DNA from: a virus
Lineage: Duplodnaviria > Heunggongvirae > Uroviricota > Caudoviricetes
DNA: 34,113 nt
Direction: 5' to 3' (one strand)
Virus record (IMG/VR): IMGVR_UViG_2695420576_000005
Coordinates: 1 to 34,113 of that record
The translations under genes were made by a program, and so were the position numbers. Within the stretch, counting starts at the first letter, position 1. Every line of letters starts with the position of its first letter. Of this stretch, positions 2,604-29,841 are shown one piece after another. The notes beneath the pieces are model-generated. The model saw nothing but the letters and a program-made list of their open reading frames with translations. It was not told the origin of the DNA and did not search any database.

Positions 2604-2885
2604 TCACATCCAGCCACGAAGTTGATGCTCAACAGCAACCACGTATTCATCGAATAATGACGATATTTGCGAATCATTAATGATGCGCACGTTTACAAAA
2701 TATCCGTCTTCCTTAACACATACCGGTTCGCCATCTTCAGTCAGTTCTCCGGTTTCTTTGTACACGTTACCTATCACGTCGATAAGAATATCATCCTGCA
2801 TCGACTCGTCATCATAATAGCCAATACTCTCCATAAAGGCCGAAAAGTCGGCCCTGTCTTCAAATTTGAGTGTTAAATCTTTCAT
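2604..2885 (-). CDS. acidic 93-aa protein of unknown function, translationally coupled to stf
   Basis: Track ORF 2604..2885; its ATG (2883-2885) overlaps the stf stop (TAATG). No recognisable family; sits where Tfa would be in lambda. Confidence 0.5.
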   Translation of the reverse strand: MKDLTLKFEDRADFSAFMESIGYYDDESMQDDILIDVIGNVYKETGELTEDGEPVCVKEDGYFVNVRIINDSQISSLFDEYVVAVEHQLRGWM

Positions 2886-5284
2886 TAGATTGACTCCCCC
2901 ATTTGTGCCTCAGTTAATTCTTTATGCCAAATGCGTAAATTTTTCACATGACCGAACAGGTGTCTGTTGCCACTGGATGATTGTCCACCGATATTAATAT
3001 TACCGGCAGTATAACGTTGCAATGTATGCAGAGACGGGGAGCTGCCACCTAAAATTCCATCAACAACAACCTGCAACTGTTTATCTTCTGTAAACTTAAA
3101 GCCAGTAACAAATTTCCTTTTCTCTCTATTCCCATATGCTTTATATTCTGTTTTTGTTCCTTTGCCATTGGTGATAATTAGCCTTTTACCACGAGTGGTA
3201 AAACCAAAATACATATAACTTTCATCAGAAACTTCAGTCGTCGCCCCTGTAATTGAGATATTAAGCAAACGCGCAGAGCCTTCTAAATTAGGCATTTCAG
3301 AATCCCAATTAACATTAACTTCCATGAGAACACTAACTGGTGGAGTTGCCCAATTGAAAGGTATAGGTATGATTACCTGGTCACTTGCTCTCGTGGCACC
3401 GACCTCTGTTGTGATGATAAAAGATGACGCGTTTAGTCCCTTTTCGAATTGAGGGGTTGTTAACATTAATTTATCGCCAGACTTGATTGATCGTTGATGT
3501 GCTCCAAACTCAAAACGCCCATACATATTTTTTGCTTCTGGTGATTTGTAGGTAAACTCAACACGAATCCATCCATTAGACTCTCTGAATATGTTATAAG
3601 TTGCCGCCTCACCTCCAGAATAACTCAACATATCGCCAGTCTCGCAATCAATATATGCGCCAGCGGTCAGTGTGTTACTTGAGCCATCGTCGTTAACATA
3701 TGATATTCTTGGACGCAACGTGATAATACCATCCCCACTTACTTTTTTAACTCTGCAGGATAAAGTAACTGATTCATTTGCCGAAACTGAAATAACCCTG
3801 GTATATCCAGTAGAAATTAATGTCGCCCTTTCAGTTGTGGATGTTTCTTTAACGCCAAACAAACCATAACTGAAACCATACTCATCAACTCCCGTGGTAA
3901 TAGTTAAGTTAGCAGTGTCATAGTTCCACGATACTGGTGTATTCGTATAAGAAAAAGTATTCGTTCTCTGACCTTCAATGAGCAGACCATCTTTTTCAAA
4001 ACGTGGTTCATTTATCGCTGATTCAGCAAAACACCCAGACTTATCTATATACGTTGCAGTTGACGCCCTGGTAAATGAAACAACCTTTTCAGACGGCAAT
4101 GCAATAACATCGTCACCAACTGTGATGCTCTTATATCCAGGAGCAAACCCGGTAATCATATCCAGTGAATCGTTAAACGGTATCCACACCTCAGGTAACG
4201 GCTGTAAGACATATTTATACGGCTCCGCAGCCTGGCTTGCGTACTCTCTGGCTGCATCTTCGCTTGCTTTAGCTGCCGTCTGGCTTGCTGCCGATGCTTT
4301 CGCTGAGTTCGCAGCCGCTGTTTCGCTCGCCTTTGCGTTGGTTTCACTGGTTTTTGCTGCTTTTTGACTGTTAGCTGATGCAGTGGCAGAAGCAGCCGCC
4401 GCACTTGCAGAACCAGCTGCAGCACTCTCGCTTTCAGCTGCTGCAGCCTGACTACTTTTCGCCGCAGTTTCACTGGCTTTGGCATTCGTTTCGCTGGTCT
4501 TCGCTGCTGTCTGGCTGGACTTTGCGTTAGTTTCACTCGTCTTCGCAGCTTTCTGGCTGTTAGCCGCAGCAGTTGCTGATCCGGCTGCTGAAGTCGCAGA
4601 ACCGGCCGCCGCACTCTCGCTGTCAGCTGCTGCATCCTGACTGCTTTTCGCCGCAGTTTCACTGGCTTTGGCATTCGTTTCGCTGGTTTTCGCTGCCGTC
4701 TGGCTGGACTTCGCGTTGGTTTCGCTCGTCTTTGCGGCTGTCTCACTGTTTTTCGCGTTGGTTTCTGATTTTTTGGCTGCAGTCGCGGAGTTTGCCGATG
4801 CAGTCTGTGAGGCCGCTGCCGCCTGTGCGCTGTTAGCTGCGTTCGTTTCTGAGGTTTTCGCCGCGTTCTTCGATGATGCCGCTGCTGTTTCGGATTTCTT
4901 TGCCGCCGCTGCGCTCTGAGAGGCGGCTTCAGCGTTGCGTGCCGCTTCTTCCACCATTTCCTCAAAACGACGCAATGCCTCCGGCATGACATCATCTTCC
5001 GTCATGGCACCGAGAAAATCATTCAGCGTCCCCGGCTTAGAATCTTCATACACGGTGATGGTCCCGGCATGTGAAGGCGGAAAACCTTCAACCAGCAGGA
5101 TAACGCTGTACTGGCCATACTCAACATCCATGCTGTAACGCCCGGCTTCATCCGGATTTTCAGAGGCCACCGTGTTCACCAGTACCGTGGTGCTGTTACG
5201 CTTTGCCTTCAGTTGAATAGTGCAGTTCTGTATTGGTTTTCCCGCACCATCTTTCAGCACACCTGAGATTTTTACTGCTGCCAT
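2885..5284 (-). CDS. stf: side tail fibre protein Stf (lambda-like N-terminus, Ala/Ser/Thr repeat shaft, divergent C-terminal domain)
   Basis: Track ORF 2885..5290 (801 aa). MAAVKISGVLKDGAGKPIQNCTIQLKA... is near-identical to the lambda Stf N-terminus; lambda-equivalent ATG at 5282-5284 with GGAG RBS. The C-terminal ~450 aa are unrelated to lambda Stf. Confidence 0.85.
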   Translation of the reverse strand: MAAVKISGVLKDGAGKPIQNCTIQLKAKRNSTTVLVNTVASENPDEAGRYSMDVEYGQYSVILLVEGFPPSHAGTITVYEDSKPGTLNDFLGAMTEDDVMPEALRRFEEMVEEAARNAEAASQSAAAAKKSETAAASSKNAAKTSETNAANSAQAAAASQTASANSATAAKKSETNAKNSETAAKTSETNAKSSQTAAKTSETNAKASETAAKSSQDAAADSESAAAGSATSAAGSATAAANSQKAAKTSETNAKSSQTAAKTSETNAKASETAAKSSQAAAAESESAAAGSASAAAASATASANSQKAAKTSETNAKASETAAANSAKASAASQTAAKASEDAAREYASQAAEPYKYVLQPLPEVWIPFNDSLDMITGFAPGYKSITVGDDVIALPSEKVVSFTRASTATYIDKSGCFAESAINEPRFEKDGLLIEGQRTNTFSYTNTPVSWNYDTANLTITTGVDEYGFSYGLFGVKETSTTERATLISTGYTRVISVSANESVTLSCRVKKVSGDGIITLRPRISYVNDDGSSNTLTAGAYIDCETGDMLSYSGGEAATYNIFRESNGWIRVEFTYKSPEAKNMYGRFEFGAHQRSIKSGDKLMLTTPQFEKGLNASSFIITTEVGATRASDQVIIPIPFNWATPPVSVLMEVNVNWDSEMPNLEGSARLLNISITGATTEVSDESYMYFGFTTRGKRLIITNGKGTKTEYKAYGNREKRKFVTGFKFTEDKQLQVVVDGILGGSSPSLHTLQRYTAGNINIGGQSSSGNRHLFGHVKNLRIWHKELTEAQMGESI
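4380..4760. repeat. 189-bp (63-codon) tandem direct repeat inside stf, two near-identical copies with degenerate flanking copies
   Basis: ttttcgccgcagtttcactggctttggcattcgtttcgctgg occurs at 4456 and again at 4645 (period 189 bp); the protein shows repeated AKTSETNAKSSQTAAKTSETNAKASETAAKSSQ blocks. Confidence 0.75.
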
Positions 5285-5294
5285 ATCCACTCCA

Positions 5295-6015: not shown

Positions 6016-9000
6016 TCAGCTGATACTGATGCCTGCAGTGGCTTTCTTCATCACAACAACCAGCAAATCGCTGATACTTGCTGTGGGATACCAACCATTT
6101 ACCCACCATGCTGATACAGAAAACTCCAGTGTCATTACACCACTGCCTGCAGGCATATCAATAACACCCGTGTAAATCAGAGTATTATCCAGAGCCGTTC
6201 GGTTATAAATTTCAGCCCCGTTTTTCTTCACTATCAGGCGGCATGACGAATAAGTATCGCTATTCTCCCGCTCATGTCTGGCACCGCAGAAAGCCCACCG
6301 CTGGAATAACAATTTGCCGGTCAAACGACTGATCGTCATAAACCCTGACGGTAATAGTCCCTGATGGCCACCGCTCCGGTGCACGGGAGTCCCGGGGGAA
6401 AGCTTTGCCCACTGTTTTAACGAGATCGCCTTCAATCTGGTTCGCGGACAGTTTTCCCAGAACCCGACAGTTCTCGTTAATCGTGACATTATTGAGCGTC
6501 CCGGAGTTCGCATTCACGTTACCGCTGATATCGGCATTTTTCGCCGTCAGCCGCCCGTCCGGTGTCAGGGAAAATACCGGAGGATTGCCGCCACTGGTAA
6601 TGGTGGGAGCCGTCAGATACTTCAGGAACACTTCGTTCATGAATATCTGGTTGCCCTGCGCCACAAACATCGGCGTTTCATTCCCGTTTGCCGGGTCAAT
6701 AAACGCGATACGGTTAGCGGCAACCAGGAACTGGCTCAGTTTGCCTTCCTCCGTATCCTCCATACTAAGGCCAAGCCCCGCGACATAATGCCTGCCGTCT
6801 TCGGTCTGCTCAATTTTGACGCCCCACATGGCATTCCATTTATCGTTGGCGTCCTTCCACTCTTTCGAAAACTCCTCCAGTTTGCTGGCGTTATCCTCCG
6901 TCAGCTCGACTTTTTCCAGCAGCTCCTTGCCGAGATGGGATTCGGTTATCTGGCCTTTGAAAAAATCCAGGTAACCTTCCGCATCATCGCTCGGCTGACC
7001 AACAGCCTCCACGAATGCCGATTTGCCAACGGTGTTCACACTGCGGATATAAAAGTAATAATCATGGCCCGGTTTGATATTGATACTGGCAGCTATCCAG
7101 TACAGCGCCGTACCAAGATAGCGGGCTGTGGTCTCAACCTGCCTGATATCGGTAATCCGCTTTTCCGAGAACCAGAACTCAAACTGTACCGTCGGATCAT
7201 AAACCGCAAGATGCGGCGTGGCAGTTATCTGAAAATAGCCCGGCGTCAGCTCAATCCGCGACGGCGCTGCCGGTGCGGCAATCCGGAACGATACCGATGC
7301 CGGATCGCCCTGCTGTCCCCACGCATTTACCGCCCGGACCGTCAGCGTGTAACGCCCCAGCGCCAGTTGCCTGAAGCGGTATGTGGTTTCCGTCGTCCTG
7401 GCCGTGCTGACCAGCCGCTCACTGCCGTCATCCGCTGCCACGGTCAGGCGAAGCATAAAGCTCACCCCCTTCACCACCTTCGGCGTATCCCAGCGCGCCA
7501 GCACCTGATACTCCCCGCTGTCTGAGGTGACTTCGGCAGTCAGGTGCTGCACCGCAGGCGGCGTGACACCATTCACCGTGCCGCTCTGGTCGCCGTCAAA
7601 GTGCGCCCCGTTATCCACGATGGCCTCTTTTTCCGGCACATGCTGCACGGCGGTGATGGCATACGTGCCGTCGTCGTTCTCACGGATACTCACGCAGCGG
7701 AACAGGCGCTGGCGCAGCGTCGGCAGCTTCAGCCCCCATACGCTGTATTCAGCAACACCGTCAGGAACACGGCTCACTTTTACCTTCACGCCGTCGGTGA
7801 CGGACTGAACCTCCACGCTGACCGGATTGCCACTTCCGTCAACCAGACTTATCAGCGTGGTACCGGAGGATGGCAGCGTGATTTCACGGTCGAGCGTCAG
7901 CGTCCGGGTCTGGCTGTTCACCGCCAGCACGCGCAAGCCGATGCTGATACCCGCATAGTCATCATCACAGATTTCAATGACATCCCCCGGTACATGGCGA
8001 AGCCCTTCCGCACCCACGCTGAAGTCCACGGTCTGCGTTTCCAGCAGTTCCGTTTTAATCAGCCACAGCCCGGCGCGGTGCGCCTGCCCCCGGCTGGTAC
8101 AGCCAAAGGCATCCATCTTCGTGACGTTACGACCGTAACGGGCAATGGCCTGCGTATCTTCAACAAGCTCTGTCGCCGTCTCCCAGCCGTTGTTCGGGTC
8201 AATCCAGTTCACCTCAACGGCATTATGGCGGTCCTTCAGGGCGCTGAAGCTGTAGCGGAACGGCGCGCCATCATCCGGCATCACCACATTACTGCGGTTA
8301 TAGGTCCACACCTTATCTGATGGTCGGTCCTGCACGAACGTCAGCGTCTGCCCGTTCCATACCGGCATACAGCGCATCGCCGAGCAGAAATCACTGAGCA
8401 CATCCCACGCCTTGCGCTGTGTGGTCAGCCAGGCATTACAGGTGATGCGCGGCTCCGTGCCACCAAAGCCATCCGGCACCGACTGGTCGCAATTCTGGCC
8501 GATGACATACAGCGCCCATTTGTCCACATCCGCCGCACCGAGACGCTTCCCCATGCCGTAGCGCGGATGGGTCAGCATATCCCACAGACACCAGGCCATG
8601 TTGTTGCTGTATGCTGGCTTAAACGTTCCGTCCCAGATACCGCTGTATTGTCGCGTCTGCGGGTTATAGTTCGACGGCACCTGCAGAATGCGCCCGCGAA
8701 GATGATAATTACGACTCACCTGCTGGCTGCCGAACTGCTCCGAGGGTCCACCTGTACGCTGACCAGTGCCGTGTTCGGGTAGCACTGTTTCACATCGATG
8801 ATTTCGGTGTATGACGACCAGAGCGTTTTGTTCTGCAGCTGGTCTGTGGTGCTGTCCGGCGTCATCCTGCGCATCCGGATATTAAACGGGCGCGGCGGCA
8901 GGTTATCCACCACCACCGAGGCCAGATACTGCGAGGTGGTTTTGCCTTTAATGGTGATGTCTTTTTCCGTCACCCAGCCACCGTTACGCTGTATCTGAAC

Positions 9001-9414
9001 CAGCAGGCGGACTTCCGACGGATTCCGGTCCCCCTTTGAGGTGGTTTCCACCAGTGCCTGCACACCGAAGGTAAAGCGCAGACGGTCGATGTTTGCAGAC
9101 GTGATGGTCCGGGTAATCGGCGTGTCGTACTTCACTTCCGTACCCAGCACCGTCTCGGAGCCGGAGGATTCAAATCCCTCCGGCGGTGTCTGCTCCTGCT
9201 CACCTGCCCGGAACACCACCGTGACACCGGAGATATTGGTATTCCCCTCACTGTCCAGCACCGGCGTACTGTTCAGCAGCACACTTTTTAATCCGTCCAC
9301 CGGACCTTCAATCGGCCCTTCACTGATGGCGTCTATCACGCTCAGCATCTGGGATGATTTCAGGTTGTCCTTCGCTTCGCGCGGGGTATGCCCCTTACTG
9401 CTGCCTTTACCCAT
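6016..9414 (-). pseudogene. J: tail tip / host-specificity protein J, interrupted by two frameshifts
   Basis: Three collinear ORF pieces (8716..9414, 6272..8785, 6016..6513) each match successive parts of lambda J. The span is 3399 nt, the intact lambda J length. Frame changes at about 8744-8747 (C run) and 6290-6293 (T run). Confidence 0.85.
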
Positions 9415-11468: not shown

Positions 11469-11797
11469 CAGTTCACCACCTGTTCAAACTCTGCGCTGAA
11501 CTCAACACGCAGCATACTGACCCGCGACGACCATTTTGCGCAGGTCACCTTTATCTGCCGCCACTCATAAGGCGGCGTCCACAGAAAGGCTTTCCAGCCC
11601 CCGTGCTCTTCCAGAAACGACTCCAGCGCCGCGGCCTCCCAACGGGGAACAGAAAGCGTCACGCTGTACGTTTTCAGGTTGGCATTCAGCCCGGCAGGCG
11701 CTCGCTGGGAATAGCCATCACCAAAGCGCACCTTTCTTACAGAAGGGGCCGAAGCCACATCCATACCGGGTTTCACTTTCCAGCGGAAGGTTTTCAT
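11468..11797 (-). CDS. M: tail tip protein M
   Basis: 109-aa ORF MKTFRWKVKPGMDVASAPSVRKVRFGDGYSQRAPAGLNANLKTYSV..., lambda gpM. Confidence 0.9.
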   Translation of the reverse strand: MKTFRWKVKPGMDVASAPSVRKVRFGDGYSQRAPAGLNANLKTYSVTLSVPRWEAAALESFLEEHGGWKAFLWTPPYEWRQIKVTCAKWSSRVSMLRVEFSAEFEQVVN

Positions 11798-14363
11798 CGT
11801 CCACCTCCGGAGAACAGACCACCATCACGCATCTGAGCCCGGTCACAACATCCATTGCCGCCTTACGGGCTACGTCATAAACAGCCTTCAGCGCCTGTGG
11901 CCCTATCTGACCGTTCGTGCCGTCGTTGTTAATCACCACATGGTTATTCTGCTCAAACGTCCCGGACGCCTGCGACCGACTGTCCGCCATGCTGCCCGGT
12001 GTACCGACATAACCGCCGGTGGCATAGCCGCGCATAAGCCGGTAAAGATTCCCCACGCCAATCCGGCTGGTTGCCTCCTTCGTGAAGACAAATTCACCAC
12101 GGTGAACAATCCCCGCTGGCTCATATTTGCCGCCGGTTCCCGTAAATCCTCCGGTCGCAAAATGGAATTTCGCCGCAGATGCCTGAATGGCTGTACCGCC
12201 TGACGCTGATGCACCGCCAATGACACTCCCGACACTCCCGACGATCCCCACCATTGCCTGCTTAAGCAGAATTTCTGTCATCATGGACAGCACGGAACGG
12301 GTGAAGCTGCGCCAGTTCTGTTCACTGCCGGTCAGCATCGCCGCCATATTCTGTGCAATACCATCAAAGGTCTGCGTGGCTGCACTTTTTACCTGCGACA
12401 TACTGTCCGTGGCGCTCTCTTCCCACTCACTCCAGCCGGACTTCAGGCCTGCCATCCAGTTCCCGCGAAGCTGGTCTTCAGCCGCCCAGGTCTTTTTCTG
12501 CTCTGACATGACGTTATTCAGCGCCAGCGGATTATCGCCATACTGTTCCTTCAGGCGCTGTTCCGTGGCGTCCCGCGCTGCCTGCCGGTCAGTCAGCCCC
12601 CGGTTTCAAGTCGCCTCAATGGCTGCCCGTTTTGCCCGTTGCTGCTGTGCGAATTTATCCGCCTGCTGCGCCAGCGCGTTCAGGTGCTCCTGATACGTGA
12701 CCTTATCGCCAAGTGCAGCCAGCTGGCGTTTGTACTCCAGCGTCTCATCTTTATGCGCCAGCAGGGATTTCTCCTGTGCGGACAGCTGGCGACGTTGCGC
12801 CGCCTCCTCCAGTACCGCGAACTGACTTTCCGCCTTCCACAAATCCCGGCGCTGCTGGCTGATTTTCTCATTCGCTCCGGCATGCTTCTCCAGTGTCCGG
12901 AGTTCTGCCTGAAGCGTCAGCAGGGCAGCATGAGCACTGTCTTCCTGACGATCGCCCGCAGACACTTTCACGCCGGACTGCTTCGGCTTTTTCAGCGTCG
13001 CTTCATAGTCCTTTTTCGCCGCCGCCATCAGCGTGTTGTAATCTGCCTGCAGGATTTTTCCGTCTTTCAGTGCCTTATTCAGTTCCTCCTGGCGGGCGGT
13101 ATATTTCTCCAGCGGTGTCTGCAGGCGTTCGTAAGCCTTCTGCGCCTCTTCGGTATATTTCAGCCGTGATGCCTCAGACGAGGCCCGATCTTTTGCTGCC
13201 ATCTCACTGGCCTTTTCAAGATCTGCCTGCAACGTGGCGGCTGAAAGCCCAAGTCGCGCATTCTCTCTCTTCTCCCATGCCCCCCGGAGATTGGCAAGAA
13301 ATGCTGACGTTTTACCGCGCCGGTGGCTTCGGCTCTGATACCACTGCCATTTTTTATCCGCTTCATCAAAAGCCTTTTCAGCTTTGGCGAGCATATCTGC
13401 AGAGGAGTCCGGGCGACCAATATCCAGCACCGCATCCCACATGGATTTGAATGCCTGTGCAGTCTTGTCTGCCCAGGTCTCCAGCGTACCCATGTTATCT
13501 TTCAGTTTACGGGTCTGGTCATCAAACCCTTTCGTTGCGGCCTCGTTCGCCGCCTGCAATGCCCCGGCCCCATCGCCGGAACGCTGCAACTGAGCAACAT
13601 ACGCAATCTGTTCCGCCGTCACGTTATGGAACTGGCGCGCCATCGCCGTCAACCCAGACGTCGGGTCAGTGGTCAGCTTCCCGAAGGCTTCAGCGACCTT
13701 GTCCACCTCCACGCCGGATGCAGAGGAGAAACGCGCCACACTCTGGCTGATTGCCTCAAACTGCTCACCACCACGCACACCGGCATTCACCAGCGCCGTC
13801 AGTGACTCGCTGGTCTGGTTAAACGTCAGCCCTGCCGCCTGCCCGGATCTGGACAGGGCCAGCATACGATCTGCCGTCAGTCCCGCCTGATTACCGGAAA
13901 GGACCAGCGTTTTATTGAAATTGGACAGGGTTGAGTCACCCTGATACCAGGCATACGCCAGCGCACCGGTCGCCACCGCCAGCGAAGTGATACCAACCAT
14001 CGGCAGGGTGATCGCACCGGCAAGCCCCCTGAACATGGGGATCATCCCGCCGAAGGAGTCCTTCACCTGACCACCCTGTTGCAGCAGGATGAGCCACGGA
14101 TTCTGCCCCCCTGCAAGCTGCGTGGCCACGTCGGTGAACTGCGCAGGCAGCATACGCATGGCAGCTTTATACTGCCCGACGGAAATCCCCGCTTTCTGTG
14201 CAGCCAGCGCCTGCCGGTTCATTGACTGTTCAACGACTGCCGCTGTTTTTTTCGCATCACTTTCCGTACCGGAAAAATGACGCCTGACTCTGGCCATCTG
14301 CTCGTCAAATCTGGCCGCATCCAGACTTAAATCAACGACCAGATCGCCTACCGGTTCAGCCAT
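11794..14363 (-). pseudogene. H: tail tape-measure protein H, interrupted by an in-frame TGA and a 3'-terminal frameshift
   Basis: ORFs 12606..14363 (585 aa) and 11718..12509 (263 aa) are in one frame separated by TGA at 12606-12608. The conserved C-terminus ...QMRDGGLFSGGGR* (stop 11794-11796, overlapping the M start as ATGA) lies in a different frame. Confidence 0.85.
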
Positions 14364-14790
14364 ACCGGACTCCTCCTGCGATCCCTTCTGATACTGTCAT
14401 CAGCATTACGTCATCCTCCATCATGTCCGCCACATACGGGGAAGCGGGGATAACTTCATTCCCGTCCGGGCCAAAACGAACGCCTCCGGCAAGCCCTGCC
14501 GCTTTCTGCATCAGCACATCATCTTCAGGCTCTTCGTCAGCCTCGCGCCGGTTAAGCAGACTGAAATCCAGCGGATGCATATCCGGATCGCTGAAAAACA
14601 GGCTGAGCACGGTGTACGTCAGCCCGGAAAAGTGCATATCCAGCAGAACATCATGAAAATAATGGGTACTGTAAAAGCGGTGCCAGTCGGCATACTCCGT
14701 GGATGACATCCCGGCAAGCATGGCGCGCCAGTCGGGTCGCCCCATCTCACGCGCCAGTTTCAGGGCAAAACTCAGCTCACCGACGAACAC
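14356..14790 (-). CDS. T: T-frame segment of the G-T tail assembly chaperone fusion
   Basis: 144-aa ORF VFVGELSFALKLAREMGRPDWRAMLAGMSSTEYADW... matches the lambda gpGT C-terminal portion; begins immediately after the slippery heptamer. Confidence 0.75.
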   Translation of the reverse strand: MFVGELSFALKLAREMGRPDWRAMLAGMSSTEYADWHRFYSTHYFHDVLLDMHFSGLTYTVLSLFFSDPDMHPLDFSLLNRREADEEPEDDVLMQKAAGLAGGVRFGPDGNEVIPASPYVADMMEDDVMLMTVSEGIAGGVRYG

Positions 14791-14796
14791 TTTCCC
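14790..14796 (-). promoter_or_regulatory. programmed -1 ribosomal frameshift slippery heptamer GGGAAAG (G/GT site)
   Basis: Plus-strand ctttccc at 14790-14796 is GGGAAAG on the minus strand, followed by the T-frame ORF exactly as in lambda G-T. Confidence 0.7.
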
Positions 14797-14823
14797 GCAG
14801 AAACAGGCTCTGCAGGCCCGGCG

Positions 14824-15198
14824 TCAGACGAGGGCCTGTTCAGGGGAATTATTCACCACAAACTCAGACATTCCGGACAGACGTAACACCACGTTTTCAG
14901 CCTGAGCAATTGCCTCCGTGGGCCAGGTGGTAAGCACTTCCTGCTCAATCTGCGTAATGGCTTCATTCATGGACGGCAGCTTTGTCTTCTGCGGATGGTT
15001 ATGCCACAGAGACATCGCCACCAGAAACGCCCCGCCTCTGATAAGATCCTCTACAGACACCTGCAGGTTGCCGCTGGATTCAGCCTTTTTTTCCTGCTCT
15101 TTCAACCAGGCAAGATGCTCAATACGCTGCAGGGCTGACAGTTCAGAAAGCGTGACGGTCACGCCGTTATGTTCAAATGATTCTGTTTTCAGGAACAT
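14824..15198 (-). CDS. G: tail assembly chaperone G, truncated: 3' end out of register with the slippery site
   Basis: 124-aa ORF MFLKTESFEHNGVTVTLSELSALQRIEHLA... matches lambda gpG (140 aa) but stops at TGA 14824-14826; the conserved tail SSDAGPAEPVSAGKCSS and GGGAAAG lie in the +1 frame. Confidence 0.75.
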   Translation of the reverse strand: MFLKTESFEHNGVTVTLSELSALQRIEHLAWLKEQEKKAESSGNLQVSVEDLIRGGAFLVAMSLWHNHPQKTKLPSMNEAITQIEQEVLTTWPTEAIAQAENVVLRLSGMSEFVVNNSPEQALV

Positions 15199-15213
15199 CG
15201 CTGACTCTCCGGA

Positions 15214-15954
15214 TTAACTGGCGGTGACGGTGATTTCTGCAACCGCAGCAAACTCACCATTACCGGATACAACCGGAATGTTGACCTTGCCTGCAGCAAC
15301 GCCGTTCACGGTGATGGTCATACCACTGACCGACACGGTGGCTTTTGTTTTATCCGCTGACACCGCACGGAAGCTCTTGTCGGTTGCGCCTTCCGGCTGG
15401 AATGCCACGGTCAGCGTCGTGCTCTGCCCTTTCACTACGGAAGCACTGGCTGGCGTTACCGTCATGCCGGTGGCCGCTGTTACCGTGCTGCGATCTTCCC
15501 CCATCGACGGGCGTCCCACATTGGTGACCTTCACCGTGCGGGTGATCACTTCCTTCGCCGTCACCGCTTTACCGATACTGCTGACCCAGCCACGGAACAC
15601 ATCGACCGTGCCGTTCGGGAAGCGGATTTTATAGGCACGGGTATCACCTTCATTAAACCACGCCAGCAGCGCCTGCTGCCCCTGCTCTCCGGGCATCCAC
15701 GCCAGCGTGAAGCTGGTATCTCCGGCTGATTTCTGCCCCTGCCCGGTCGCAGTCCAGTCCGCATCCTCATCATCGAGATAACTGTCGTCATAGGACTCAG
15801 CGGTCAGTTCGCCGGGCGTCAGGTCTTTAACTTTTGCCAGACGCGACCAGTCAACGTCTGAAAGCGGGTTCGCATAAGGGTCACCGTTCCCCTTATAAAC
15901 CCATAGTGTGGTCCCGGCCCCTTTCACCGGCATTGTAGGATTTGGTACAGGCAT
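15214..15954 (-). CDS. V: major tail protein V
   Basis: Track ORF 15214..15984; lambda-equivalent start [22 protein letters not shown]... at ATG 15952-15954 with GAGGA RBS; 246 aa ending ...AEITVTAS. Confidence 0.9.
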
Positions 15955-15961
15955 ATCGTCC

Positions 15962-16357
15962 TCACATTTCATAGGTAATGACATACGTCAGATCGGCTGA
16001 ACTCCACAGGCCCGCATCATCGTCGCGTCGGTAGTCATAGCCACTGGCCACCATACTGGTGATCAAATCTGACAGTGCCGGAATATCGCTCATCACCGGA
16101 TAAATCCGGGACTCCATCCACGAATCCAGCTCTGAATCCGGCACCTGAGCAGGCAGGAAAACTTCAATATGCAGCTCCGCCTGCCAGGTATCGCTGTCCA
16201 GCTCTTCGCCCGTGTATTCAGCGCCGGTGAGATAAACGGCAATTGCCGGAAAATCCGCCTCATCAAAAACAGCGGGGCGACCATCAAAAAGCGTCGCCCC
16301 GGTGTCATGCTTCTCCAGTGCATCCAGTACGGCTGCACGGAGTTCAGTATGTTTCAT
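15962..16357 (-). CDS. U: tail terminator protein U
   Basis: 131-aa [46 protein letters not shown]..., lambda gpU. Confidence 0.9.
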
Positions 16358-16932
16358 CGCTTTATTACCATTCTCAGTTGATGCTGCAGCGCATAGCCCA
16401 GCTCTTTCGGAAGACGCTCACGCCGTATCCGTTCAATATTCTGTTTAAACGCCGTGGTCAGTGGCACCGCCATCGGGATTTTCACCACATCAATGGGGTA
16501 ACGGTTTTTCCCGGCCACACGCTGCATAACATGCCAGCGGCCATTTTTCAGTTGCTGAATAAACGCGCCGGGAATACGACGGTTTCCCACCACAAGCACG
16601 CTGCCGCCACCTTTCAGGGCTGAACGCTGCCCCTTTTTACGACGCCTGCGTCGGGACAGGACAATCCGCGCGTTACCCAGCTTTATTACGGGCAAATCCC
16701 CCCGGTTAACCTTGATTCTGGCCTGCGGATTTTTAACCGTGGCCCTTTTCAGCCTGGCCCTTTCCTTTACCAGTTTCCGGCGTACCTTTGTCTCACGGGC
16801 AACCTGTGACGCCGACTGCGATATCGCGGATGAAGCAACGCGGTTAATGGCCATTGCGGCGGCACCAGGCACCGCCGTTTTGCTGATACGGCTGAGGTTT
16901 TCAACGGCCTGCTCAAGACCTTTTATGGCCAT
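16354..16932 (-). CDS. Z: tail completion protein Z
   Basis: 192-aa ORF MAIKGLEQAVENLSRISKTAVPGAAAMAINRVASSAISQ..., lambda gpZ; ATGA overlap with U. Confidence 0.9.
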   Translation of the reverse strand: MAIKGLEQAVENLSRISKTAVPGAAAMAINRVASSAISQSASQVARETKVRRKLVKERARLKRATVKNPQARIKVNRGDLPVIKLGNARIVLSRRRRRKKGQRSALKGGGSVLVVGNRRIPGAFIQQLKNGRWHVMQRVAGKNRYPIDVVKIPMAVPLTTAFKQNIERIRRERLPKELGYALQHQLRMVIKR

Positions 16933-16943
16933 ACATCCCCCTT

Positions 16944-17297
16944 TCAGCGGCGACGGTTAACGGCAGGCGGTACGCCCCGTCCAAGCCAGAGATGACAGCT
17001 TCCGCCATCATCCGGCGAAACACGATCTATCCAGAAGTTTTCCTCACCGATGGTCAGCGTGTCTCCACGCCGCAGTTGCCGCACATCATCAGTCCGGACA
17101 AACAGGGACGGGCTGGAGCCTTCAACGCGCACGCCCTGTCCGGCATAGCTGATATTTTCAGGGTCATCAAAAACACCACGTATTACTGCGCCGGACTGCT
17201 CACCGGATGTCATGGTGGCTGACGTTCCCATGTACCCGCGTATCGTTTCATCGGTGCGGGCAATGGCAGCATCGAACAGGTTATCGAAATCAGCCAC
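16944..17297 (-). CDS. FII: head-tail joining protein FII
   Basis: 117-aa ORF MADFDNLFDAAIARTDETIRGYMGTSATMTSGEQSGAVIRGVFDDPENISYAGQGVRVEG..., lambda gpFII. Confidence 0.9.
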   Translation of the reverse strand: MADFDNLFDAAIARTDETIRGYMGTSATMTSGEQSGAVIRGVFDDPENISYAGQGVRVEGSSPSLFVRTDDVRQLRRGDTLTIGEENFWIDRVSPDDGGSCHLWLGRGVPPAVNRRR

Positions 17298-17308
17298 AGC
17301 GCCTCCCG

Positions 17309-17707
17309 TTATTGCATTCTGGCCAGGCCGCGCTCTGTCATTTCAGCTGCCACACCGGCAGAGACACGGAACGCCGTTCCCGGCAGCACAAATGCCACAG
17401 GTTCATCCCGCGTGGCGTGAAGTGCATCAGTATGCAGCGTCACCAGTGCCACGACCGTGACCAGTTCAGCCGTATCCTGAATCACGGTATCCGGCTGCGC
17501 TGATACCACCTCATGTTCATGCCCGGTCAGCACATTTTCCGGGCTGAGAGGGGTATCCTGACCGGCAGTGTCGCCCGTGTCATCAAGCTCCTCTTCCAGC
17601 TCTGCCACACGGAGCGCCAGTTCTTCTTTCGTCCCCGTCAGACTGACATCACGGTTCAGTTGTTCACCCAGCGAGCGGAGACGGGCAATCAGTTCATCTT
17701 TCGTCAT
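17309..17707 (-). CDS. FI: DNA packaging protein FI
   Basis: Track ORF 17309..17746; lambda-equivalent start MTKDELIARLRSLGEQLNRDVSLTGTKEELALRVAEL... at ATG 17705-17707 (132 aa). Confidence 0.85.
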   Translation of the reverse strand: MTKDELIARLRSLGEQLNRDVSLTGTKEELALRVAELEEELDDTGDTAGQDTPLSPENVLTGHEHEVVSAQPDTVIQDTAELVTVVALVTLHTDALHATRDEPVAFVLPGTAFRVSAGVAAEMTERGLARMQ

Positions 17708-17748
17708 GGACTCCTCCACAGAGAGAAAATGGCCCCGAAGGGCCACGA

Positions 17749-18774
17749 TTACGCCAGTTGTACGGACACGAACTCATCAGGGTCAGCCAGCAGCATCAGC
17801 GGTGCTGACTGAATCATGGTGAACTCACGCGCCGGATCGCCGGTGGTCACCCAGTTTTTCGGGTAACGGGCAGAGGCGTTAATGCCTTCGCGCTGTGCGT
17901 CCGCATCCTGAATACAGCCATAGGTACGCAGACCGCGTGCCTGAGTGTTCCCCAGCACCATCGTGTTGTCCGGCAGGAAGTTCTTTTTGACGCCGTTTTC
18001 CACGTACTGTCCGGAATACACGACGATGGCAACATCGCCATACATCCCCTTATAGGACACCGCTTTACCCAGGTCTTTCACCGCTGTCTCCAGCTCGGAA
18101 TTAGAGCCACGACGGGTATCCAGCTTCTCCTTGACGGCTTTGAAGGAACGGAACAGCGCCCAGCCTTTCGGATCAAACACGATGATATTCACCACACCGC
18201 TGGCGTTCAGCGCGTAGGCTTCGATATCGTCGGTCGGGTCATACGTGGACTTGTCACGCTTGCTCCACTCCGTGCCGCCGGACTGCGTGATGTTATTCGC
18301 CGCACTGCGGCCCATATCCACCTCAACCGGATCGAAGGCTTCACCGGTCATGGTGTATTTGCCCTTAAGCACGGCAGAAACGGCCTGCATCTCTTCGACC
18401 TGAGCAATGGCCAGCTCTTCGTCACGCATGTTCTGCATGATGATGCGACGGCGGCGGTAAGCCGGGTCCGCCAGATTCTGCGGATCTTCATCCGGCAGGC
18501 GACGCAGGGTCATCTGCGGATTCACCTCATGCTTCGGCTTGACATATCCCGGCGTAAATTCAGAGGTGGATCCGCCACGGGAACGGATAACCTCACCGGA
18601 AACAATCGGCGAAACGTACAGCGCCATGTTTACCAGTCCCGGAATTTGTGAGAGATAGACTTTCTCCGTGGTGAAGGGATAGCTCTCACGGAAAAAGAGA
18701 CGCAGAAACAGCGGATCAAACTTAAATTTCTGCTCATTTGCCGCCAGCAGCTGGGCGGTTGTGTACATCGACAT
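17749..18774 (-). CDS. E: major capsid protein E
   Basis: 341-aa ORF MSMYTTAQLLAANEQKFKFDPLFLRLFFRESYPFTTEKVYLSQIPGLVNMALYVSPIVSGE..., lambda gpE. Confidence 0.95.
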   Translation of the reverse strand: MSMYTTAQLLAANEQKFKFDPLFLRLFFRESYPFTTEKVYLSQIPGLVNMALYVSPIVSGEVIRSRGGSTSEFTPGYVKPKHEVNPQMTLRRLPDEDPQNLADPAYRRRRIIMQNMRDEELAIAQVEEMQAVSAVLKGKYTMTGEAFDPVEVDMGRSAANNITQSGGTEWSKRDKSTYDPTDDIEAYALNASGVVNIIVFDPKGWALFRSFKAVKEKLDTRRGSNSELETAVKDLGKAVSYKGMYGDVAIVVYSGQYVENGVKKNFLPDNTMVLGNTQARGLRTYGCIQDADAQREGINASARYPKNWVTTGDPAREFTMIQSAPLMLLADPDEFVSVQLA

Positions 18775-18830
18775 AAAAAAAATCCCGTAAAAAAAGCCGC
18801 ACAGGCGGCCTTTAGTGATGAAGGGTAAAG

Positions 18831-19163
18831 TTAAACGATGCTGATTGCCGTTCCGGCAAACGCGGTCCGTTTTTTCGTCTCGTCGCTGGCAGCCTCCGGC
18901 CAGAGCACATCCTCATAACGGAACGTGCCGGACTTGTAGAACGTCAGTGTGGTGCTGGTCTGGTCAGCAGCAACTGCAAGAATGCCAACGGCAGCACCGT
19001 CGGTGGTGCCATCCCACGCAACCAGCTTACGGGTGGAGGTGTCCAGCATCAGCGGGGTCATTGCAGGCGCTTTCGCACTCAATCCGCCGGGCGCGGTTGC
19101 GGTATGAGCCGGGTCACTGTTGCCCAGCGGCTGGTAATGGGTAAAGGTTTCTTTGCTCGTCAT
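18831..19163 (-). CDS. D: capsid decoration protein D
   Basis: Track ORF 18831..19169; lambda-equivalent start [12 protein letters not shown]... (ATG 19161-19163), 110 aa ending ...[12 protein letters not shown]. Confidence 0.9.
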
Positions 19164-24935: not shown

Positions 24936-25386
24936 CCCGTTGGCCGTTCTGGTCTACTTCGTAATGGGATTTAATAGCTGAACGACAAAAGTCTTGCGAC
25001 CACAGTCACACAGACCTGAATACACGTCCTGTTTCTTCCACCCCCGCACAGGACTGGCGAGCATGAGGGCCCCCCCCCCGCGAACCATAAACGCGGTAAA
25101 AACCCGGTGTGCATCGTTTTTGATTATTCCCGCACACTCACGCAGAAGGAATTCCCCGTCGGGCTACGGTCATGGTTAATGCGGGAATACGGCGACGATA
25201 CAGCGCAGCTAAAAGGGTAATGGACAGATAGAGCGGTTTATTTCATTCCACAGGATTCTGAGTGCCTCCCTCCGCCAATAGGCTGAGCATCCACCTATAT
25301 AGTTTTAATTTTCATCAATCCATTTAACTATCGTTTAATTGTTGTCACATAGGATTCTGCCGTTTTTAACAATGCAGGATAATAAG

Positions 25387-25680
25387 ATGAAAAAAATGTT
25401 GTTTTCTGCCGCTCTGGCAATGCTTATTACAGGATGTGCTCAACAGACGTTTACTGTTGGAAACAAACCGACAGCAGTAACACCAAAGGAAACCATCACC
25501 CATCATTTCTTCGTTTCGGGAATTGGACAGGAGAAAACTGGTGATGCAGCCAAAATTTGTGGCGGCGCAGAAAATGTTGTTAAAACAGAAACCCAGCAAA
25601 CATTCGTAAATGGATTGCTCGGTTTTATTACTTTAGGCATTTATACTCCGCTGGAAGCGCGTGTCTATTGCTCACAATAA
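25387..25680 (+). CDS. bor: Bor lipoprotein (serum-resistance lipoprotein family)
   Basis: Track ORF 25339..25680; lambda-equivalent start MKKMLFSAALAMLITGCAQQTFTV... (ATG 25387-25389, AGGA RBS); lipobox LITGC; 97 aa; opposite strand to the lysis genes as in lambda. Confidence 0.9.
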   Translation: MKKMLFSAALAMLITGCAQQTFTVGNKPTAVTPKETITHHFFVSGIGQEKTGDAAKICGGAENVVKTETQQTFVNGLLGFITLGIYTPLEARVYCSQ

Positions 25681-27563: not shown

Positions 27564-28684
27564 ATGAAAAAATTAACAGTGGCAATTTCTGCTGTAGCTG
27601 CATCAGTACTGATGGCGATGTCTGCTCAGGCAGCTGAAATTTATAATAAAGACAGTAACAAGCTGGATCTATACGGGAAAGTTAATGCCAAGCACTACTT
27701 TTCCTCTAATGATGCAGATGATGGTGATACTACTTATGCCCGTCTTGGCTTCAAAGGTGAAACCCAAATCAACGATCAACTGACTGGTTTCGGTCAGTGG
27801 GAATATGAATTCAAAGGCAACCGTGCTGAATCTCAAGGTTCTTCCAAAGACAAAACCCGTCTTGCATTTGCAGGCCTGAAATTTGGTGATTACGGCTCAA
27901 TCGATTACGGCCGTAACTACGGTGTAGCATACGACATCGGTGCGTGGACTGACGTCCTGCCAGAATTCGGTGGTGATACCTGGACCCAAACAGATGTGTT
28001 CATGACTGGTCGCACTACTGGTGTTGCAACTTATCGTAACAACGACTTCTTTGGTCTGGTCGATGGCCTGAACTTTGCTGCTCAGTATCAGGGTAAAAAT
28101 GACCGCACTGACGTAACTGAAGCCAACGGTGATGGTTTCGGTTTCTCCACTACTTATGAGTATGAAGGATTCGGCGTGGGTGCAACCTATGCTAAATCAG
28201 ATCGCACTGACGGTCAGGTCGCCTATGGTAAGAGCAAATTCAATGCCTCCGGCAAAAATGCGGAAGTATGGGCTGCAGGCCTGAAATATGATGCGAACAA
28301 TATCTATCTGGCTACCACATATTCTGAAACTCAGAATATGACCGTTTTTGGTAATAACCATATTGCAAACAAAGCACAAAACTTTGAAGCAGTAGCACAA
28401 TATCAGTTTGACTTCGGTCTGCGACCATCTGTTGCTTACCTTCAGTCAAAAGGTAAAGACCTTGGTGTTCATGGTGACCGAGACTTAGTCAAGTATGTCG
28501 AGTCTTAGTCAAGTATGTCGATGTAGTCAAGTATGTCGATGTCGGTGCTACTTACTACTTTAATAAAAACATGTCCACTTTTGTTGATTACAAAATCAAC
28601 TTAATTGACGATAGTAAGTTTACCAAAACAGCTGGTATTGATACCGACGACATCGTCGCTGTAGGTCTGGTTTATCAGTTCTAA
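27564..28684 (+). pseudogene. nmpC: prophage-encoded OmpC/NmpC-family general porin, reading frame broken 60 codons from the 3' end
   Basis: ORF 27564..28508 (314 aa with signal peptide [23 protein letters not shown], then [16 protein letters not shown]...). Downstream in another frame is an intact porin C-terminus ...[54 protein letters not shown] (stop 28682-28684). Confidence 0.85.
28485..28539 (+). repeat. imperfect tandem triplication of a 16-20 nt unit (ttagtcaagtatgtcga) causing a 38-nt insertion in the porin gene
   Basis: Copies at 28485-28501, 28505-28521 and 28524-28539, separated by gtc and tg. Deleting 28486-28523 restores a continuous porin frame. Confidence 0.8.
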
Positions 28685-29482: not shown

Positions 29483-29841
29483 TCATCTCCCAGTTCGGTG
29501 ATGGTCAGCTCCAGCTTCCCACCTTTGGTAACGGGCATCTTCACAACACGGTAATCAACGACCTGAATATCATCCAGCCAGAAACCTGCTTTGGTGAGTG
29601 CGTCAAAAGCGGCTTTTTGCAGATTATCCAGGTCACGGCGACGGCGATCCGGCATGTGGCACTCAATACGGATTTTAAAAGGCATAGCCAAGCCGATATC
29701 CAGCATTGCGTTTTTAATGATTCGGGCGACGTTATCGCAGTATGCCTGCCCCTCTGCGCTGACGTGCGTGCGCCCACGATTATGGCGGTAATAGCGATTA
29801 TTGCTCGGAGGCCAAGGTAATGTGATGCTGTAGGTATTCAC
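29479..29841 (-). CDS. rusA: Holliday junction resolvase RusA
   Basis: 120-aa [94 protein letters not shown]..., RusA family. Confidence 0.9.

Follow-up and report, generated by a model that had tools for sequence, protein, structure and literature searches.

Apparent paired frameshifts in the tail tip gene J of a lambdoid prophage are probably consensus errors of a draft contig

The closest described counterpart of the J gene analysed here is the gpJ/TipJ allele WP_000515309.1 (1131 aa), which is carried by Escherichia coli UPEC132, GN02350, YP3, FDAARGOS_1259 and others, and to which it is 99.9% identical in nucleotides over the full gene. The carriers of this allele also show the synteny H-M-L-K-I-J-lom-stf and have the same prophage beside sitABCD. 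Another member of the family, with the same gene order, is the J of phage lambda (NP_040600.1, 3399 nt), although lambda-type records align over about 89% of the gene and diverge at its C-terminal, receptor-binding end. In the same tail gene cluster, the lambda G/GT tail assembly chaperone has a real, conserved programmed -1 frameshift at a conserved slippery heptamer that is found in all relatives, whereas no slippery site accompanies the frame shifts in the J described here, which are private and unconserved.

A frame-disrupted copy of the same J allele has been deposited for E. coli A1.S1.65 (NZ_CP146591.1), where the gene (3395 nt; 15505-18899 of its locus) has a private 1-nt length change and is annotated as "frameshifted". 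That change is a deletion, with its gap near window position 6394, in contrast to the insertions found here. The A1.S1.65 assembly contains several further genes annotated as "frameshifted" or with an "internal stop" in the same prophage, and its J frameshift may have a similar, artefactual origin.

The window, that is, the whole 34,113-nucleotide stretch of viral DNA that was analysed, carries a lambda-type tail module on the minus strand, composed of H, M, L, K, I, J, lom and an stf-like fibre. Its J lies where gpJ/TipJ is expected, between I and lom and downstream of H-M-L-K, and the precomputed Pfam matches on the two called fragments comprise FNIII-A_GpJ, Phage-tail_3, Ig_J, Ig_J_second, Phage_Tail_Tip and Ig_GpJ_C. 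It is an unremarkable representative of the gpJ/TipJ family, and its allele is already present in many complete genomes. Unlike WP_000515309.1, it has an insertion of two bases, an insertion of one base and one dinucleotide substitution, and is in consequence read as three ORFs. The relevant features are as follows.

6016..9414, minus strand: whole J (lambda-type tail tip / host specificity protein), 3399 nt, split into three reading-frame segments
8716..9414, minus strand: N-terminal J fragment ORF, 232 aa, genuine J until the first insertion, after which a few out-of-frame codons lead to a stop
6272..8785, minus strand: middle J-frame ORF, 837 aa in the mechanical translation and 815 aa in the gene calls of the deposited assembly, with J homology from about 8743 to about 6297
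6016..6293, minus strand: C-terminal J segment with the N-terminal frame regained, a portion of the mechanical ORF 6016..6513
8744..8746, minus strand: first frameshift, plus-strand GGG against a single G in all intact relatives, +2
6294..6296, minus strand: second frameshift, plus-strand CCC (minus-strand GGG) against CC/GG in all intact relatives, +1
7935..7936, minus strand: private dinucleotide substitution, plus-strand AA against CC (minus-strand TT against GG), G493L in the repaired protein

An earlier note, made from the sequence of the window alone, had described J as a gene whose central part is out of frame and which returns to its first frame near the C-terminus, and this return is real in the deposited sequence, although the details of the indels differ. 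The middle, J-homologous ORF does end at 6272, and the C-terminal homology does run on to 6016 in the frame of the N-terminal part, the last part of the ORF 6016..6513 encoding ...ENSDTYSSCRLIVKKNGAEIY...DMPAGSG...VVVMKK... This ORF and the N-terminal one share a frame (8716-6016 = 2700, which is divisible by 3), and the frame of the middle ORF is a different one. Also correct are the span of 3399 nt and the plus-strand AAA at 6290-6292. The single uninterrupted ORF of about 1131-1132 codons by which gpJ/TipJ is recognised is absent, the deposited J consisting of three ORFs, and a ribosome starting at the J start would stop at 8716-8718, a few codons past the first insertion.

The nature and position of the shifts had to be revised once J was compared with intact alleles by global alignment to UPEC132 and UTI89 and by a window-wide alignment. 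In these alignments, the two bases gained at 8744-8746, the one gained at 6294-6296 and the dinucleotide at 7935-7936 are the only differences from the closest allele. The second shift had been placed at the TTT/AAA run at 6290-6292, but that run is the same in all relatives, and the extra base belongs to the adjacent CCC at 6294-6296, where the minus strand reads GGTGGGCTTT against the intact GGTGGCTTT. The stretch flagged by the earlier note, 6284-6295, thus overlaps the true site by its last two bases only, and the proposed refutation, TT rather than TTT in the reads, addressed the wrong run, the informative one being CCC/GGG. Nor are the two indels reciprocal: both are insertions, +2 and +1, with a sum of +3. 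When positions 6294, 8744 and 8745 are deleted, an uninterrupted J of 1131 aa is obtained, which equals WP_000515309.1 apart from G493L.

A further claim, that 3399 nt is exactly the intact length of J, does not apply to this allele, which is 3396 nt long when intact, so that the J of the window is 3 nt longer. In a megablast search of 5,426 complete E. coli genomes, J-like sequence was detected in 4,658, and the nearest matches, 99.9% identical, are annotated as intact gpJ (WP_000515309.1). Every full-length match listed at 94-99.9% identity, among genomes and phage records, has an intact J of 3396 nt, the sole exception in length (H11) being one of 3395 nt that is annotated as "frameshifted". 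Lambda J does measure 3399 nt, but the agreement of the window with lambda in this respect is coincidental.

Whether the inserted versions occur elsewhere was addressed at three levels. A panel was assembled from seven near-identical complete genomes in which this prophage occupies the same place, adjoining sitABCD; although 405 compared sites vary among these genomes, all seven oppose the window at every J difference. The direct adjacency of prophage and sitABCD at the icd locus is an arrangement that the window has in common with this panel, several members of which are of human urine or blood origin. Probes of 61 nt centred on each insertion were then searched in the 5,426 complete E. coli genomes, and neither inserted version had a full-length exact match among them. 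The +2 version (8744-8746) was found in none of the 3,559 genomes with a match, the best identity being 96.7% of 61 nt, which corresponds to 2 gaps. For the +1 version (6294-6296), the best identity among the 321 genomes with a full-length match was 98.4%, which corresponds to one gap; a single record at 99% or above would be a partial-coverage match, 322 of the 323 records covering at least 80% of the probe. Metagenome contigs were scanned for the +1 version with a pattern that allowed GG or GG plus any base between the flanks, and all seven matches had the intact 27-nt GG form. In a collection of 15 billion proteins, the exact 232-aa truncated product of J was found on one contig only, AOQH01000090.1, a sequence of 55,674 bp from the draft assembly GCA_000397345.1. 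From this contig, 8.45 kb to the left of the window were recovered, the overlap with the window being identical (by our own arithmetic, a window position plus 21,245 gives the position on AOQH01000090.1). A literature search on AOQH00000000, AOQH01 and GCA_000397345 found no paper on the assembly. Both J insertions are private to one assembly, with the relatives and the population agreeing on the other state.

On these grounds, the frameshifts in J are very probably an error of assembly or sequencing and not biology, and the J of this lambdoid prophage would be intact in the organism. The consensus of AOQH01000090.1 would contain errors, mostly small spurious insertions and clusters of miscalled bases, two of which would fall in J, at 8744-8746 (+2) and at 6294-6296 (+1). 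As 2 + 1 = 3, the original frame would be regained near the C-terminus, which would mimic a "compensating" frameshift. This reading is favoured because the removal of three private bases gives an intact J of 1131 aa, because neither insertion occurs outside a single draft contig in comparisons with thousands of genomes, and because private small insertions are in excess all along this contig, non-prophage genes included. A point against it is that both insertions make 3-base homopolymers, as replication slippage could. The differences in J are confined to this contig, along which the spectrum of private differences is abnormal, and we infer that they would stem from sequencing or assembly and not from mutation in the cell. 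The earlier note had left the choice between recent decay and sequencing error to a comparison with intact J genes, and this comparison favours error over decay.

Because translation that begins at the J start ends at 8716-8718, there can be no selection for restoration of the frame, so that the word "compensating" has no functional meaning for this gene. By chance, about one third of all pairs of frameshifting indels would add up to a multiple of 3.

Private differences were counted over 42.6 kb of the contig, including 8.45 kb of non-prophage chromosome, against the seven relatives. Thirteen private indel events were counted (12 insertions and 1 deletion), to which a complex +4 change at 14827-14833, binned elsewhere by the script, adds a 14th, and insertions thus make up 13 of the 14. 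Private substitution events number 24, of which 8 are multi-base clusters. The ratio of indel events to substituted sites is 13 : 24 among private differences, compared with 14 : 405 among the seven relatives (Fisher p = 7e-9), and that of transitions to transversions is 12 : 22, compared with 276 : 129 (p = 2e-4). Nonsynonymous and synonymous changes stand at 19 : 9, compared with 90 : 163 (p = 0.002); this ratio has the expected direction and is a weak discriminator on its own, because the closest relatives, separated by very short branches, have a nonsynonymous excess as well. By our count, only 5 of these 14 indels change the length by a multiple of 3, which is about the chance expectation, and selection has therefore not filtered them. 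Their density, about 0.33 events per kb (14 per 42.6 kb), leads to an expectation of about 1.1 events in a J of 3.4 kb, and the Poisson probability of at least two, by our own arithmetic, is about 0.3, so that two events in J need no special explanation.

The same kinds of damage are seen at other sites of the contig. In the tape-measure gene H (minus strand, about 11795-14363), a private complex replacement at 12607-12610 turns the intact TT into CAAGT, a net gain of 3 nt, and brings in an in-frame TGA, as a result of which H reads as a product of 585 aa and a separate C-terminal ORF. A second private event in H, +2 at 11835-11836, lies near the 3' end, whereas the relatives have one gene of 2565 nt. 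Immediately upstream of the G/T overlap, in the 3' part of gpG, the complex change at 14827-14833 replaces TCATCTGCC by TCAGACGAGGGCC (net +4) and shortens the G ORF to 124 aa, compared with 140 aa in the relatives. The motif CAGACGAGG at this change recurs at a private dinucleotide change at 13180-13181. In the ompC-like porin gene of the prophage, at 28485-28543, a unit of about 19 nt (TAGTCAAGTATGTCGATG...) is imperfectly triplicated, with a net gain of 39 nt, while all seven relatives have one copy. An imperfect 9-nt tandem duplication in sitD, at 462-470 (TTTTTTCTG beside TTTTTGCTG), adds three codons and is likewise private, being absent from 7/7 relatives. The porin triplication, with its inexact junctions, looks like assembly stutter, and both it and the sitD duplication look like stutter of the consensus.

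Private insertions extend into the non-prophage DNA to the left of the window, where five were found, at -7608, -3682, -3579, -1916 and -1757 relative to window base 1. They include insertions of +3 and +2 in sitA, which is called as 287 aa compared with a 915-nt (304-codon) gene in the relatives, as well as intergenic ones, and private substitutions are clustered around the icd remnant. The density of private insertions in the chromosomal flank (sitA, sitD and intergenic) equals or exceeds that of the prophage. Private differences of similar density and unnatural spectrum are thus found outside J, conserved non-mobile genes included.

Several smaller observations belong to the same stretch. 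Downstream of sitD, six private substituted bases fall within 26 nt (1030-1055), and in rusA three fall within 4 nt (29677-29680), with one amino-acid change, V to F. A tail fibre domain gene on the minus strand (1551-2594) has a private +3 at 2012-2015, where AG and G are inserted, and its 347-aa product is found on this contig only. The neighbouring stf-like ORF, 2885-5290, was considered as a further difference from the relatives and rejected, as UPEC132 has the same continuous ORF of 801 aa (12873-15278 of its locus); RefSeq splits the relatives' copy of this fibre, which has Ala/Ser-rich repeats, into a pseudogene and two CDSs, an annotation quirk. Both iss, a bor-like serum-survival lipoprotein gene (about 25350-25650), and lom are located on the prophage.

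The alternative that survives best, although it is unlikely, is genuine pseudogenisation, in which a defective prophage would have gained +2 and later +1 in J by slippage, the net +3 being coincidental. Decay of prophage structural genes does occur, the deposited sequence does read in this way, both insertions lengthen short G/C runs, and H and G, which are also structural genes in the window, are broken too. However, the damage reaches beyond the prophage into sitA, sitD and the intergenic flank, and neither insertion was found in any other genome or metagenome contig searched; the lesions are neither common to clonal relatives nor confined to the dispensable prophage. The spectrum is also unlike the natural polymorphism of the relatives, with 13 of 14 indels being insertions, complex multi-base replacements, an excess of transversions and stutter duplications. 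A further possibility, which we consider quite improbable, is that the insertions are real and that J has been freshly inactivated, and H, G and sitA broken, by an unusual, insertion-biased and transversion-rich mutational process acting chromosome-wide.

It is still less credible that the consensus is chimeric, that is, that a short-read assembler mixed reads of paralogous J genes from other lambdoid prophages in the genome. J-like sequence occurs at a median of 3 places per E. coli genome, and some J alleles, that of lambda among them, are 3399 nt long; on this reading, another J copy of the assembly should read GAGGGTC or GTGGGCTTT at the corresponding sites. Against it, the whole 3.4 kb are identical to one allele apart from 3 inserted bases and one dinucleotide, and borrowing from a paralogous 3399-nt allele was rejected, since no J copy in the 5,426 genomes has the inserted versions. 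A chimera would in any case be an assembly artefact all the same.

Functional recoding, in which ribosomes would change frame twice in a programmed manner to make J, or the insertions would serve as a phase-variation switch, has a negligible probability and was rejected: its sole supporting point is that the three frame segments jointly encode a full-length J with complete homology, but the relatives all encode J in one frame without the inserted bases, neither minus-strand context, GGACCCTCGG or GGTGGGCTTTC, is a slippery heptamer of the type X XXY YYZ, runs of 3 nt are too short for phase variation, and the insertions, and with them the shifted arrangement, were conserved nowhere in the genome and metagenome searches.

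Consensus error being the preferred reading, the J "frameshift" is best not counted as a real feature. Were the insertions real after all, they would represent ordinary prophage decay. An error rate of about one indel per 3 kb is enough for chance to produce a "compensated" pair of frameshifts. The finding mainly concerns quality control: pseudogene calls, scores of prophage "defectiveness" and inferences of gene decay that are based on this draft would be wrong. In the organism itself, J, H and G of the prophage and the flanking chromosomal sitA are most probably intact.
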